Assembly (NCBI GenBank): GCA_944383915.1
Contig: CALWRJ010000023.1
Span: forward strand, 10,274 to 74,273
Direction: 5' to 3'
From: an uncultured Clostridia bacterium
GTDB taxonomy: Bacteria; Bacillota; Clostridia; Christensenellales; UBA1242
DNA length: 64,000 nt
Shown here: piece by piece, positions 250 through 57,770 of the stretch
Layout: each line of letters opens with the position of its first letter
How positions within the stretch are numbered: position 1 is the stretch's first letter
Notes under the pieces: generated by a model
What the model saw: the letters and a program-made list of their open reading frames with translations, nothing else
Database searches by the model: none
What the model was told of the DNA's origin: nothing
Made by a program: the position numbers and the translations under genes

Positions 250-272
250 TTGCATAGTACTGTGCATAGTAC
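250..272 (+). repeat. 2 copies of the TGCATAGTAC motif (12-nt spacing)
   Basis: TTGCATAGTAC at 250-260 and GTGCATAGTAC at 262-272, just downstream of the last head-module ORF. Confidence 0.9.
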
Positions 273-298
273 TGTTTTTCAATTAAAATTCTATAATA

Positions 299-676
299 TT
301 ATGCCCAACGGGTTTTGTAGGAATCGTCAAAGTTACAGTCACCGCTTTTATGATTTGCGTAATCAAACATTTCTTTTGCTTTATACGAAACTTCGTCTTT
401 AATCACTCTTTTTTGCTCATTTTCAAGTTTTAAGTTATTTTCCTCAATTTCTTGCATCAATTTTTTAATATTTTCGATATTAGTTTTCCTTAATTTTTGA
501 ATAACGGTATAATTTAGCCCATTATCACAAGTTATACAAAAAGTATTAGTTTGCTTAGTATTATGCACTTCAAATTTGTTGTTTTTTGTGTTAAAAACTA
601 CAAAATAATTAGGATTTAAGGCTTTTATGCGCTCTGCAATATTAAAAGCATCGTTTTTTATCTTAATTAGAGCCAT
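299..676 (-). CDS. hypothetical protein, last ORF of the phage head module (125 aa)
   Basis: ORF track. Its ATG shares a base with the stop of the upstream capsid gene (TAATG at 674-678), which suggests translational coupling. No motif recognised. Followed by about 300 nt of non-coding DNA to the window edge. Confidence 0.55.
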   Translation of the reverse strand: MALIKIKNDAFNIAERIKALNPNYFVVFNTKNNKFEVHNTKQTNTFCITCDNGLNYTVIQKLRKTNIENIKKLMQEIEENNLKLENEQKRVIKDEVSYKAKEMFDYANHKSGDCNFDDSYKTRWA

Positions 677-1863
677 TAACTTTTAATCGCACCTGTGTTC
701 CATCTGTATTGCGTAATCGTATTAGGTCTGTCGCAAATTAAGTCACAATATTTTACCAAAGTTGCAGTGTGCGTTGGATAGCCTTCGCGTTGTTTTATAA
801 CTTCACCTTTGTTGTTTGTTAACCAAGTCCAATCGCAAAGTTGGTGGAAGTGCCATACACTAGAATCAAGGAAATATGCAGTGTGAAGATTTACAAATTT
901 AGTAGCAAGAAGTGGAATTCCGTTAAACGAAATTGTCTTAAAGCCATCTTCAAGATTAAGTACATCGAGATTAATTTTGTTTTGACTCAATAAATTTTGG
1001 AAATATCTACGGAAAAAGTAACCGCAAACGATGAAGTCGACATTCGCATTAGCACCTAGATTGAGGTCATCGACAACTTTCACAAGTTCGGGAATGTTTG
1101 TACTCGTGGTCGTAATGCTAGTTGGATTCATTAGATTACTTGACGAGCGTTCAATTCCGTAAAGTGTTTTGATATTCGTGGTATCGCAAACACCTTTGAT
1201 ACCGATAAATTCTTTATCTTTTGAACCAGCAAGATAAATGTCAAACATATTTTCAAGTTCGTACTCCTCTGGTAAACTTACATTTAGCGTAATTGAATTT
1301 GAAACATAATTAATATCAGTAATTATCGCATTTTTCAAAAACGAAACTTCGCTTCCGTCTTGATAACCAGTAATTCGCATACCGACTGCAAGATTTGAAG
1401 CGTCACTAACTGTATAGATATTAGCACCGACAACACCCATTGTTATTTGGCAAAGAAAACTTGTTCCATCACCATAAAGCATACGGCGAAGATTAAACTT
1501 GCTTGATTCGAGCAAATTTTCAATTTCGGCATTCAATAGATTTACAAAAGCCCCCGCCTCATCTTTGCTCGCACGAATGGCTTTGTCCGAAATTTCAAGA
1601 GTTCCGTAAAGGTTGCGAAGTTTGGAAGTTAGGCTTAGATAGTTATTTTCCTTTGGTGTTGGAAGCGAACCGACTTCACTCCCCGCGCCAATTCCGCCGT
1701 TAATCCCAACAGAAACAAGTTTTTTGATTTCATTACCCGAAATATCTTGCGTAATTTGATTGATTTTTGAGTAAAAAGGGTCAATATTTTTGTTTAATTG
1801 ATTTGAAATCACTTCCAAATAGACATTTTTTAGCGCGCTGTCAGCCGTTGACAAAGAAATCAT
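676..1863 (-). CDS. phage major capsid protein, paralog 2 (395 aa)
   Basis: AAGGAGG RBS upstream of the ATG. Lies downstream of the portal and scaffold genes. Shares long identical strings with the adjacent paralog (NLYGTLEISDKAIRAS, GAFVNLL, HQLCDW, WLTNN, TATLVKY). From recall, these blocks resemble capsid proteins annotated in Clostridia prophages. Fold family not verifiable here. Confidence 0.7.
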   Translation of the reverse strand: MISLSTADSALKNVYLEVISNQLNKNIDPFYSKINQITQDISGNEIKKLVSVGINGGIGAGSEVGSLPTPKENNYLSLTSKLRNLYGTLEISDKAIRASKDEAGAFVNLLNAEIENLLESSKFNLRRMLYGDGTSFLCQITMGVVGANIYTVSDASNLAVGMRITGYQDGSEVSFLKNAIITDINYVSNSITLNVSLPEEYELENMFDIYLAGSKDKEFIGIKGVCDTTNIKTLYGIERSSSNLMNPTSITTTSTNIPELVKVVDDLNLGANANVDFIVCGYFFRRYFQNLLSQNKINLDVLNLEDGFKTISFNGIPLLATKFVNLHTAYFLDSSVWHFHQLCDWTWLTNNKGEVIKQREGYPTHTATLVKYCDLICDRPNTITQYRWNTGAIKS

Positions 1864-1882
1864 AAATTTTTACCTCCTTAAA

Positions 1883-56335: not shown

Positions 56336-57202
56336 TTAGAGAAATTTTTTAAAAGTCTTAATTACTTCGTTTTGCTCATCGGTCAAACTGTAACTGTTTC
56401 CCATACTCTCTAACTTTTTAGAAAAATACTCAAGTTCGGCTTTGTCGGCTGGCTTAATAATAGTATCGTACACAACTTTCAACTTCGCCATACGCTCAGT
56501 TTTATCTCCAATCTTTAAAGCACTGCGAATATCTTTAACAGCCGTCATAAAGTGGTTTTTATATTCGTCATTATTACCATTTAAAACATTTTGTGCAGAA
56601 TTTGCGCCTTCACTCTTGAAATTAGACTTGCTCGTTTGCTCGTTAGCGTTGTTAAGTTGTGGTGCGCTATTTAAATTTGAATTTTCAATATTTAAATTAT
56701 TTTGTGCGTTTTGCAGTGCGTCACTGTTTATAGTAGTGCCATTTGCATTGTTTTGCGCTTGCATTTTTGCCATTTTCTTGACATTAAGTTTGAATGATAC
56801 AAAGTAAATCACAACACCGATTATCGCAAATACCACATTAAGAAGCGAATCTCTTAAAAATGCATTTTGCATTTCATTATCATTACTTAGCATATCTATA
56901 AAAATATCAAACGCTTCATTAAATGAATAGCCATAATAATTACCAACTATAAAACCGGCAGATATTAAAAACGCAACTTCACTTAACGCGATTGTCCAAA
57001 ACAGCACCCAAACGAACGATAGCCAATTCACTTTATAAAACTTTTGATAAATATAAAACGAAAGCCCAGCAATCGCTATTGAAATCCAAGCAGATATAAA
57101 GTTAGCATAATAAATTAGCCCCGAAATGACCGCACCAACCAAGCAAACAACAAAACTTAACACTAGCGCAAGCCAAATAGAGTTACGCTTAACTTTTTCC
57201 AT
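56336..57202 (-). CDS. hypothetical membrane protein (288 aa)
   Basis: Four predicted N-terminal TM helices, an N/Q-rich linker and a soluble C-terminal domain. A terminator lies downstream. Confidence 0.5.
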   Translation of the reverse strand: MEKVKRNSIWLALVLSFVVCLVGAVISGLIYYANFISAWISIAIAGLSFYIYQKFYKVNWLSFVWVLFWTIALSEVAFLISAGFIVGNYYGYSFNEAFDIFIDMLSNDNEMQNAFLRDSLLNVVFAIIGVVIYFVSFKLNVKKMAKMQAQNNANGTTINSDALQNAQNNLNIENSNLNSAPQLNNANEQTSKSNFKSEGANSAQNVLNGNNDEYKNHFMTAVKDIRSALKIGDKTERMAKLKVVYDTIIKPADKAELEYFSKKLESMGNSYSLTDEQNEVIKTFKKFL

Positions 57203-57287
57203 AAACTTTCCTACCTTTTTAAAGTATAATAAGATTATATCTTAATTATTATATTATGTCAATTTGAATGCTATGTGATTTCAACTT

Positions 57288-57707
57288 TTAAAGCAACAAA
57301 TCGTCAATATAGCAGTTTAAATATTTTGCAATTTCAAGTAGGTTCGCAACACTCGGCACAACGCCCTTTTTCCACCTTAAAATATTATCTGGCGAATAAT
57401 TTAAATCTCGGCAAAATTTCCTAAACGATATATTTTTATTTTTTATAAAAGTTGATAAATTATGATAAAAAATTTCGCTATCGAACGAATAATTGCCCGA
57501 AAAGTCGTTTTCGTCCTTTAAATTAAACAAATAATCAATCGAAACTTTTAAATAATTCGCAATTTTTATTACAGAATTAAGGCTTGGATACCTTTGCTTA
57601 TATTTATAAAAGGTATTTTTTGAAATTACATTATCAATAAATAAATTTTCCGTACTTTTATTTTGCTCGGCTAAAATATTTTTAACTAACTCCGAAAAAG
57701 TAATCAT
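57288..57707 (-). CDS. XRE-family transcriptional regulator with two tandem HTH domains (139 aa)
   Basis: Two HTH_XRE-like segments (SLNSVIKIANYLKVSIDYLF and SVANLLEIAKYLNCYIDDLL). AGGGGAAAA RBS. A TGCATACTAC site lies about 55-65 nt upstream of the start. Confidence 0.65.
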   Translation of the reverse strand: MITFSELVKNILAEQNKSTENLFIDNVISKNTFYKYKQRYPSLNSVIKIANYLKVSIDYLFNLKDENDFSGNYSFDSEIFYHNLSTFIKNKNISFRKFCRDLNYSPDNILRWKKGVVPSVANLLEIAKYLNCYIDDLLL

Positions 57708-57760
57708 TTTTCCCCTAAAAAATTAATAATTAAATTGCTTTATTGTGCTTTAAATACTTT

Positions 57761-57770
57761 TGCATACTAC
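57761..57770 (+). promoter_or_regulatory. single TGCATACTAC site upstream of the XRE regulator gene
   Basis: Located about 55-65 nt upstream of the ATG at 57707, next to a direct repeat (TTAGGTA) read on the minus strand. Confidence 0.5.

Follow-up and report, generated by a model that had tools for sequence, protein, structure and literature searches.

In a 64,000-nt stretch of DNA from an uncultured Clostridia bacterium (contig CALWRJ010000023.1, positions 10,274 to 74,273 of the forward strand; the whole of this stretch is hereafter called the window), a 10-nt motif, TGCATAGTAC, is strongly over-represented and is gathered into small arrays, in which the copies are spaced at one, two or three turns of the DNA helix. 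The motif is a trait of the host lineage, private neither to the window nor to the prophage that the window carries: arrays are present at many loci in at least 44 species-level metagenome-assembled genomes (MAGs) of gut Clostridia, with G+C contents from 23 to 66%, often at orthologous positions, with a clear bias in their placement relative to genes and with some of them lying inside coding sequences. Our tentative interpretation, to which we give somewhat less than an even chance, is that these arrays are cooperative binding platforms of a DNA-binding protein conserved in the host lineage, and that they act as dispersed boundary elements resembling the repetitive extragenic palindromic (REP) sequences and bacterial interspersed mosaic elements (BIMEs) of other bacteria.

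Over-representation and arrangement in the window

On its two strands the window has 16 exact copies of TGCATAGTAC, where dinucleotide-preserving shuffles give an expectation of 0.04 (the largest value in any shuffle being 1), and allowing one mismatch raises the count to 30, against 2.29 ± 1.54 expected. All 16 exact copies, and 26 of the 30 matches in total, fall in six clusters, with no exact copy standing single and dispersed. An earlier reading of the window (the original prediction), which reported the motif about 24 times in clusters at these positions, was therefore correct on this point. The four matches outside the clusters (at 558, 44376, 46765 and 57761) all carry one mismatch, and since their number is close to what chance predicts (about 2.3), the one at 57761, which had been taken as a site of the neighbouring XRE-family regulator, is not significant by itself. 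This lone copy (TGCATACTAC, 57761-57770, plus strand), 54 nt upstream of the XRE gene, is statistically chance-like. The statement that all copies but one are intergenic is right for the clustered copies, the exception being the one at 8906-8915, and has to be amended for the isolated matches at 558, 44376 and 46765, which lie inside open reading frames (ORFs).

The leftmost cluster (251-272, plus strand) consists of two exact copies (251-260 and 263-272) with a 12-bp period, 27 nt past the stop of the last gene of a phage head module in the window (299-676, minus strand). The next one combines a single exact copy at 8906-8915 (plus strand), whose reverse complement includes the start ATG of terL (8908-8910) after an AGAGG ribosome-binding site, with six copies at 8994-9111 (plus strand; two exact and four with one mismatch), which repeat the unit TTGCATAGTACTTCAAAAAC with a 20-bp period and a final interval of 28 bp; this array adjoins an AT-rich, ORF-free stretch of about 700 bp with tandem repeats of its own. 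At 10983-11010 an inverted pair had been described, and the location is correct; the element itself is a chain with a 12-bp period (10983-11016, minus strand), in which one exact and three one-mismatch copies overlap on both strands, between the convergent 3' ends of an SH3-like gene (9811-10929, plus strand) and of a sigma-like gene (11384-11929, minus strand). Four copies (three of them exact) at 15846-15948 (minus strand), at intervals of 32, 30 and 31 bp, are found at the junction of the phage-like segment and a ylbJ-like gene (16069-17061), 121 nt upstream of its start. Three exact copies at 33693-33747 (plus strand; intervals of 21 and 24 bp) lie between the predicted terminator of the gene at 34073-34741 (33980-34003, minus strand) and the predicted promoter of a metallophosphoesterase gene, which has a strong sigma-70-like match at 33660-33632 on the minus strand. 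The rightmost cluster (54998-55073, plus strand) has four exact copies and one variant, includes the perfect 16-bp palindrome TGCATAGTACTATGCA at 55041-55056, exactly as predicted, and stands 170 nt upstream of an ORF at 53935-54828 and about 40 nt past the terminator predicted for rpmA (55112-55135, minus strand). Overall, three of the window's arrays are placed between a terminator and the next promoter, one between convergent genes, one just after the last head-module gene, and only the terL array between divergent genes.

Motif anatomy and helical phasing

Variants of the motif all keep the hexamer TGCATA and tolerate changes at positions 7, 8 and 10, and an extended core can be written as TTGCATAGTACT. 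An alignment of 263 exact copies shows enrichment only for a T-T ahead of the motif and a T behind it, and conservation ends at about 12 bp. Since nothing is conserved beyond this length, the motif is not part of a longer repeat or of a miniature inverted-repeat transposable element (MITE), membership in another dispersed repeat being the counter-case that the original prediction had named for itself. The inverted arrays at 8906-9111 and 15846-15948 might also be taken for the ends of a transposon, an idea that we rejected, given that the same gene block occurs in two related genomes (L113 and L029) without flanking arrays. A full-text search of the literature for the 10-mer returned only unrelated primers.

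Start-to-start spacings between copies on the same strand peak at 11-12 bp (66 pairs), 20-22 bp (28 pairs) and 28-32 bp (17 pairs), that is, at one, two or three helical turns, which places the copies on one face of the helix. The bins at 15, 16, 26 and 27 bp are empty, though the search sampled the range of 12-40 bp evenly, and it is on these empty bins that we rely, instead of on a Rayleigh periodicity test, which did not discriminate between periods, one peak dominating. With TA as the linker, the motif becomes a 12-bp unit that forms chains of alternating TGCATA and GTACTA, palindromic about both TGCA and GTAC; because other linkers are also common, the 10-mer is the conserved unit. The arrays are mainly direct repeats, with the 16-bp palindrome in only some of them. 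In the 20-bp (8994-9111) and ~31-bp (15846-15948) arrays of the window the spacers are related to each other, and these arrays have therefore grown by tandem duplication.

Distribution among genomes

Two exact copies at a distance of 2-30 nt were sought in one genome per GTDB species, and at least 114 stretches had them. About three quarters of those listed come from uncultured gut MAGs labelled 'Clostridia', 'Clostridiales' or 'Christensenella' (from human, ruminant and other hosts), the array-bearing MAGs usually having several array contigs each, and the remaining matches are unrelated tandem repeats from other phyla. We retained 75 loci from 43 low-G+C assemblies, amounting to 586 kb. The window's own species is not among the scanned representatives; its closest relatives there are syntenic with it, at 68-82% DNA identity. 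The identical word, in the same type of array, is also found in MAGs of 52-66% G+C, mostly labelled Clostridia, and the retention of an AT-rich 10-mer in a genome of 62% G+C is hard to explain without a reader of the word. The flanks, on the other hand, follow genome-specific 'dialects', such as AGTT-TGCATAGTAC-YTA in the genomes of lowest G+C.

In 2.9 million viral contigs, motif pairs gave seven matches, all of them unrelated tandem repeats, and 15 viral contigs carrying relatives of the window's terL (56-68% identical, G+C 30-62%) have no arrays. A BLAST search of plasmid and phage databases with the 20-bp-period array found no match. The proposal that the motif links the phage-like head module to chromosomal genes consequently holds only in the sense that a motif spread through the host lineage is also present in the resident prophage; beyond that it is unsupported.

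Placement and orientation relative to genes

In the related loci, where the longest ORFs of at least 90 aa were taken as genes, 59 intergenic clusters have both neighbours called, and these neighbours are co-oriented in 38 cases, convergent in 18 and divergent in 3 (64%, 31% and 5%). Divergent gaps thus hold 3 of 59 clusters, in comparison with 60 of 267 background gaps (Fisher p=0.0016). Within the co-oriented contexts, 24 clusters are closer to the upstream stop and 14 to the downstream start, with median distances of 67 nt to the stop versus 168 nt to the start, and many clusters begin 0-30 nt past a stop codon or adjoin an intrinsic terminator. The avoidance of divergent gaps, together with the preference for 3' ends, is a REP-like positional signature and the opposite of what operators would give; REPs in E. 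coli are roughly 40% tandem, 60% convergent and 1% divergent, with occasional intragenic copies. The enrichment upstream of genes that had been anticipated is not supported by the clusters of the related genomes, in which divergent regions are avoided and stops are closer than starts. As for the broader idea that the copies are the operator set of one DNA-binding protein, the motif does behave as a recognition sequence (with an autonomous core, a helical register and conservation across genomes), whereas the operator logic is not supported, with 3 of 59 clusters divergent, 18 of 59 convergent and stops nearer than starts.

A consistent orientation toward downstream genes had also been noticed, and in the window all five named genes do see GTACTATGCA, but this is not significant (two-sided p about 0.06), and in related genomes the orientation is random, both relative to 5'-facing genes (22:17) and relative to close 3'-facing genes (19:21). 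The constraint is consequently not on RNA, and an RNA-level element can be ruled out. A polar signal of the Chi type, or of the type of the FtsK-orienting polar sequences (KOPS), is ruled out as well, as the motif shows no strand or GC-skew bias (44:32, p=0.2).

No regulator gene, DNA-binding family or transposase family recurs beside the arrays in the 75 loci (586 kb): XRE pairs, a PadR-like membrane protein and DUF4364 are each found at only a few of them. Some of the neighbours that do recur belong to the cell envelope, namely murD, the junction between a penicillin-binding protein (PBP) gene and murE, glmS, and dacB, which has arrays just upstream of it in three species. Arrays are also located at two or three of the four rearrangement junctions between the window and its relatives, which are too few to judge the idea of synteny breakpoints or att sites.

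Copies inside genes and at orthologous sites

About one fifth of the clusters lie within ORFs, and the copies use all five stop-free frames (read as CIV, HST, VLC, YYA and TMQ). Since these five frames are used across different genes, a coding or peptide repeat is ruled out and the constraint on the motif must be on DNA, not on protein. In murD of four species, codons 55-70 read KLCAKTL-CIVH-CIVL-SPGV and thereby encode two exact copies, with residues replaced without any insertion or deletion, so that the protein has the same length as MurD of the window. In glmS of two species the arrays occupy the same loop in differing arrangements; in one of them (L042), the array, read as MHST-MHST, is part of a lineage-specific insertion of about 24 residues that E. 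coli GlmS does not have. The unit that was inserted measures about 42 bp and consists of a second motif (see below), a 5-nt spacer and two copies of the 10-mer, and in one genome a gene for a metallo-beta-lactamase (MBL)-fold hydrolase carries the same unit as glmS.

Conservation at orthologous sites is most evident 3' of a 298-aa gene beside serS, where, in five species whose proteins are 53-81% identical, TACTATGCAA is invariant 6-10 nt past the stop, and the DNA around the invariant copies has diverged. At the 3' end of the sigma-like gene an array is kept in four genomes with diverged spacers, the window's chain at 10983-11016 having orthologues in L113, L029 and L104. An array is likewise found at the same position past the 3' end of rpmA in the window and in L068, where it is inverted and has a different neighbouring gene, and the arrays in murD (four species) and glmS (two species) are orthologous too. 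Arrays are also gained and lost between relatives, the terL-proximal one being unique to the window. That the word persists at orthologous sites speaks for purifying selection on it or for its active homogenisation.

A second motif in the array flanks

The flanks of the arrays are enriched in a second motif, ACTMTKCGYAAAA, whose core TGCGCAAA is enriched 11-fold. Allowing one mismatch, it has 13 matches in the window against 2.0 expected, with exact copies at 3925, 6474, 6560, 12879, 21211, 24127, 25676, 31406 and 53806, and there are 40 exact copies in the 586 kb of related loci. It is often placed exactly 5 nt upstream of a TGCATAGTAC pair, as a recurrent composite, and has ACTATG in common with the reverse complement of TGCATAGTAC. 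Within genes, ACTMTKCGYAAAA is read in all three frames and mainly in the sense orientation (15:4); between genes it gives rise to hairpins, whose arms measure 13 nt and whose loop measures 6 nt, a few hundred bases or less from arrays (L016 2175-2206, L074 1583-1614 and L098 4903-4934). The clade thus carries a mosaic of intergenic elements that is reminiscent of BIMEs.

Proposed function and alternative explanations

The helical phasing, the autonomy of the word, its conservation across G+C contents and at orthologous sites, and its indifference to frame and strand together point to a sequence-specific binder of the host lineage, and the avoidance of divergent promoters, combined with the preference for the ends of transcription units, favours a boundary or architectural role over gene-specific operators. 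In the mechanism that we propose, a putative protein of the host lineage would recognise TGCATAGTAC (with its extended core TTGCATAGTACT), and copies 11-12, ~21 or ~31 bp apart would bring several protein units to one face of the helix, allowing cooperative binding and the formation of a short nucleoprotein filament or platform. Such platforms would be situated at the 3' ends of transcription units (often by intrinsic terminators), between convergent genes and sometimes in permissive coding loops, and would be selected against in divergent promoter regions. Bound arrays would act independently of their orientation, as a roadblock or insulator against read-through, as a barrier or anchor for supercoiling or chromosome organisation, or as both. 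The binder is best read as a putative product of the host lineage, and not of the prophage or of the small island that holds the XRE gene; the resident prophage would have acquired its arrays through its life in this host background.

Several considerations weigh against this interpretation. Protein binding is something that we infer from phasing and conservation alone, and a boundary or roadblock function is speculation drawn from the analogy with REPs and BIMEs. The 11-12-bp spacing could result from tandem duplication or slippage of a 12-bp unit (such units are reported by Tandem Repeats Finder). With ORF calls as crude as ours, some 'convergent' or '3'-proximal' assignments may hide small genes, and the counts are not fully independent, given that a locus had to have an exact motif pair to be selected and that some loci are orthologues of each other. 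Of the arrays in the window itself, three are closer to the downstream start than to the upstream stop and one (33693-33747) is directly upstream of a -35 box, so that a class-I activator or repressor role may apply at some of these sites, and the cell-envelope neighbours could mark a true regulon.

The explanation that competes most directly is that of a selfish or mutationally generated dispersed repeat without host function, spread by a recombinase or transposase, by slippage or by gene conversion, and tolerated at 3' ends and in protein loops in the manner of REP and MITE-type sequences or of Rickettsia palindromic elements (RPEs). We regard it as unlikely, while giving it serious weight: it would account for the REP-like positional distribution, the in-frame insertions in GlmS and the MBL-fold hydrolase, the growth of arrays as tandem units with related spacers, the flank dialects and the recurrent composite, the co-localisation with hairpin repeats of the second motif, and the gain and loss of arrays among relatives (the terL-proximal array being found in the window only). 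Dead repeats would decay, however, and here exact 10-mers are kept at orthologous sites whose flanking proteins are 53-81% identical and whose spacers are scrambled; the word is also identical in genomes from 23 to 66% G+C, the 263 aligned copies reveal no terminal repeats, target duplications or longer shared element, and no transposase family recurs near the arrays. A classical regulon, in which the arrays would be the operators or activator sites of one factor controlling largely cell-envelope genes, seems improbable to us. OmpR/PhoB/WalR boxes are built of hexamers in direct repeat with a period of 11-12 bp, and an OmpR/PhoB-type regulator reading TGCATA-N5/6-TGCATA would fit the recurrence of murD, the PBP-murE junction, glmS, a D-Ala-D-Ala carboxypeptidase gene (directly downstream of the arrays in three species) and SH3/LRR surface proteins (LRR, leucine-rich repeat) as neighbours, as well as the -35 box that the array at 33693-33747 abuts. 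Such a regulator would hardly produce the depletion of divergent promoter regions, the frequent convergent placement, the proximity to stops and the random orientation; moreover, many neighbours lack a functional theme (serS-linked genes, rpmA, hfq, mutS2 and the MBL-fold hydrolase) and no regulator gene recurs beside the arrays.

The remaining explanations are less probable still. Self-recognition in DNA transfer, either through an uptake sequence like the DNA uptake sequence (DUS) or the uptake signal sequence (USS), or through pac-like sites that let the resident head module package host DNA, is very unlikely in our view, since the copies come in phased clusters (six arrays and one lone one-mismatch copy per 64 kb) and not singly at about one per kb, and since neither the three closest phage copies nor any of the 15 related viral contigs has the terL-proximal array. 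Sequence-specific DNA uptake is also not known from Firmicutes. What speaks for transfer is a 10-12-mer with dialects, found clade-wide regardless of G+C, in several coding frames and near terminators, a seven-copy array directly at terL, and phage head genes that diverge about as much as housekeeping ones (terL and portal 78-80%; FtsW and MraY 76-78%). The original prediction named two proteins of the window as candidate binders, the two-helix-turn-helix (HTH) XRE protein (57288-57707) and the sigma-like protein (11384-11929), and either of them is highly improbable in this role, even though both have HTH-type domains, a variant copy lies upstream of the XRE gene and, in four genomes, the sigma-like gene has an array at its 3' end. 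The XRE protein's own site is at chance level and the protein has no homologue in the 75 array-bearing loci; in the syntenic stretch of L068, where the rpmA-proximal array is retained, its gene and the neighbouring one have no counterpart. The sigma-like proteins of the four phage copies are only 25-28% identical to each other (terL being about 76-78%) and the motif is invariant, relatives of this phage in other hosts have no arrays, and the motif itself occurs in at least 44 species-level genomes. Least probable of all are forespore-type (sigma-F/sigma-G) promoters, a comparison that had been suggested at the outset. The motif does hold both consensus-like elements, TGCATA as -35 and CATAGTA or CATACTA as -10 (after the consensus of the B. 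subtilis literature), 30 pairs have the right spacing of 21-22 bp (17-18 bp between -35 and -10), and the lineage has genes of sporulation type (spoVE/ftsW, ylbJ and a pro-sigma factor). Only 8 of these 30 pairs have a sense gene within 300 nt, though, with 9 facing the 3' end of an antisense gene and 13 facing nothing; the commonest spacing, 11-12 bp, cannot form a promoter, and arrays are also found within genes.

Comparison with known systems

The element is outside every family tested, being most like REPs and BIMEs in its distribution and most like iteron or centromere arrays in its architecture. With the REPs and BIMEs of E. coli, Pseudomonas and many others, the arrays share that they are short, dispersed and clustered or mosaic, that their places are the 3' ends of transcription units, between co-oriented or convergent genes, with divergent gaps almost free of them, and that some are intragenic; proteins (IHF and gyrase) bind REPs, as one putatively does here. 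A REP is, however, an imperfect palindrome, 20-40 nt long, that bears a GTAG or CGTC tag and has a cognate REP-associated tyrosine transposase (RAYT), whereas the present motif is an asymmetric 10-mer in direct phased repeats, with no GTAG or CGTC tag beside it and no RAYT seen in the 586 kb of loci, and hairpins like those of REPs are formed by the co-occurring second motif only. Iterons and centromere arrays (RepA iterons, the 11-bp repeats of R1 ParR-parC and the omega heptads of pSM19035) are likewise short tandem repeats at one to three helical turns, in direct or mixed orientation, and assemble cooperative nucleoprotein complexes; the array at 8994-9111, by its AT-rich stretch, looks like an iteron origin. 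They are restricted, though, to one or a few loci beside rep or par genes, neither of which was found in the window, in contrast to six arrays per 64 kb, in dozens of species and with unrelated neighbours.

The DUS of Neisseria and the USS of Pasteurellaceae are also over-represented lineage words of 10-12 bp, with dialects, occurring in several coding frames and at terminators, but they are single, at about one per kb, and not in phased tandem arrays. The boxes of OmpR/PhoB-type regulators (such as TGTWAH-N5-TGTWAH for WalR) repeat an invariant hexamer head-to-tail every 11-12 bp, as TGCATA does here; the sequence differs, and the present arrays have no promoter-proximal bias, reach seven copies and include intragenic ones. 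RPEs, which also insert in frame into conserved coding genes (as in the GlmS loop), are palindromic and 100-150 bp long, unlike the ~42-bp unit found here.

It is conceivable, though on balance unlikely, that the arrays and ACTMTKCGYAAAA together are a previously undescribed system of chromosomal elements in a clade of uncultured gut Clostridia, in which phased platforms of an abundant lineage-specific protein would mark the ends of transcription units, even inside the essential murD and glmS, with a function like that of REPs and BIMEs or of eukaryotic insulators and roadblocks, but with another structural principle underlying them. Should a conserved host protein bind the arrays, this would be a previously unrecognised and probably abundant DNA-binding factor, acting on a new type of boundary or architectural element, in a group of gut Clostridia that is large, uncultured and ecologically important. 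The motif can already be used as bait in pull-downs, as a probe in DNA affinity purification sequencing (DAP-seq), and as a lineage marker for the binning of MAGs and the assignment of prophages to hosts, and the copies in murD and glmS offer a natural test of how far strong protein-binding sites are tolerated in essential genes. Should the arrays instead be selfish, the repeats would form a family akin to REPs yet non-palindromic in architecture, which would likewise be new for Firmicutes.

Genomic context of the window

The window is a piece of Firmicutes chromosome, with a division and cell wall (dcw) cluster at 21.8-32 kb (mraW, PBP, murE, mraY, murD and ftsW), a type II topoisomerase pair, murG, fba and gap, pgk-tpi-pgm, and rplU-prp-rpmA among its identified genes. 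Scans for Rfam families (at gathering thresholds) and for tRNAs over the whole window found none, and sequence searches of the PDB with the 648-aa, sigma-like and XRE proteins were uninformative. The left end holds the phage head module, with a P22-like portal, terL and two adjacent paralogous genes for podovirus-type major capsid proteins (676-1863 and 1883-3058); beside it are genes for an SH3-like membrane protein, the small sigma-like regulator (of DUF1492/phrog_36 type) and a 648-aa secreted protein. The order of terL (7462-8910) upstream of a weak terS-like ORF of 181 aa (6929-7474) is unusual. The head module (window 1-15000) is also present in three other species (L029, L113 and L104); in CAKVLR it sits at another chromosomal location. 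Between the phage copies of these species the terL and portal proteins are about 76-80% identical, and the housekeeping divergence in the same genomes is comparable (76-78% identity for FtsW and MraY, and similarly for the PBP), which would agree with temperate phages that co-diverge as well as with an element of long residence that may have been domesticated.

Specific to the window is a segment of about 1.3 kb (8911-10212), which separates terL from the conserved portion of the SH3-like gene. It contains the seven-copy array, the ~700 bp of AT-rich, ORF-free DNA, in which units of 18-36 nt are tandemly repeated (9333-9568), and an extension of the N terminus of ORF 9811-10929 that has repeats of its own (30-nt repeats at 9911-10075), and it resembles an iteron origin. 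This segment is missing in the three closest phage copies, whose promoter region between terL and the SH3-like gene is without the motif. At 11039-11285, flanked by the motif chain on one side and by the 3' end of the sigma-like gene on the other, there are four to five copies of a ~57-nt repeat (TTTTAGCCAAC...CACTTCGGCATCGACA...), which has no Rfam match and is absent from the homologous phage copies of L113 and L029.

Two stretches of the window are probably small variable islands: 56336-57707, with the XRE gene and a gene for a 288-aa protein, has no counterpart in the syntenic stretch of L068, and 19407-21560, with a gene for a BspA-type LRR protein between the TSCPD gene and ftsW, has none in L017 and L035. 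Upstream of mraW, at 32373-32769, an 88-nt unit is repeated about 3.8 times (with a 185-nt super-unit, 96% identical) and contains internal hairpins; this is the usual place of mraZ, no ORF of the size of mraZ is found there, and the repeat has no Rfam match. Finally, outside the phage part (17.2-60.8 kb), the window has 41 heptamer arrays (of AATTAGC, AATTAGG, AATTCAA and their complements), each of ~33 nt and about 4.7 copies, in many intergenic regions from 17244 to 60754. Often two of them are inverted relative to each other at a distance of 100-250 nt, so that long hairpins could form (for example 17244-17276 with 17426-17458, 21630-21662 with 21780-21805, 26845-26877 with 27065-27090, and 48092-48124 with 48345-48377; a further example is at 33465-33627), and as they are otherwise found only in the closest relative (L068, CALWEW), they are a recent, species-level trait.

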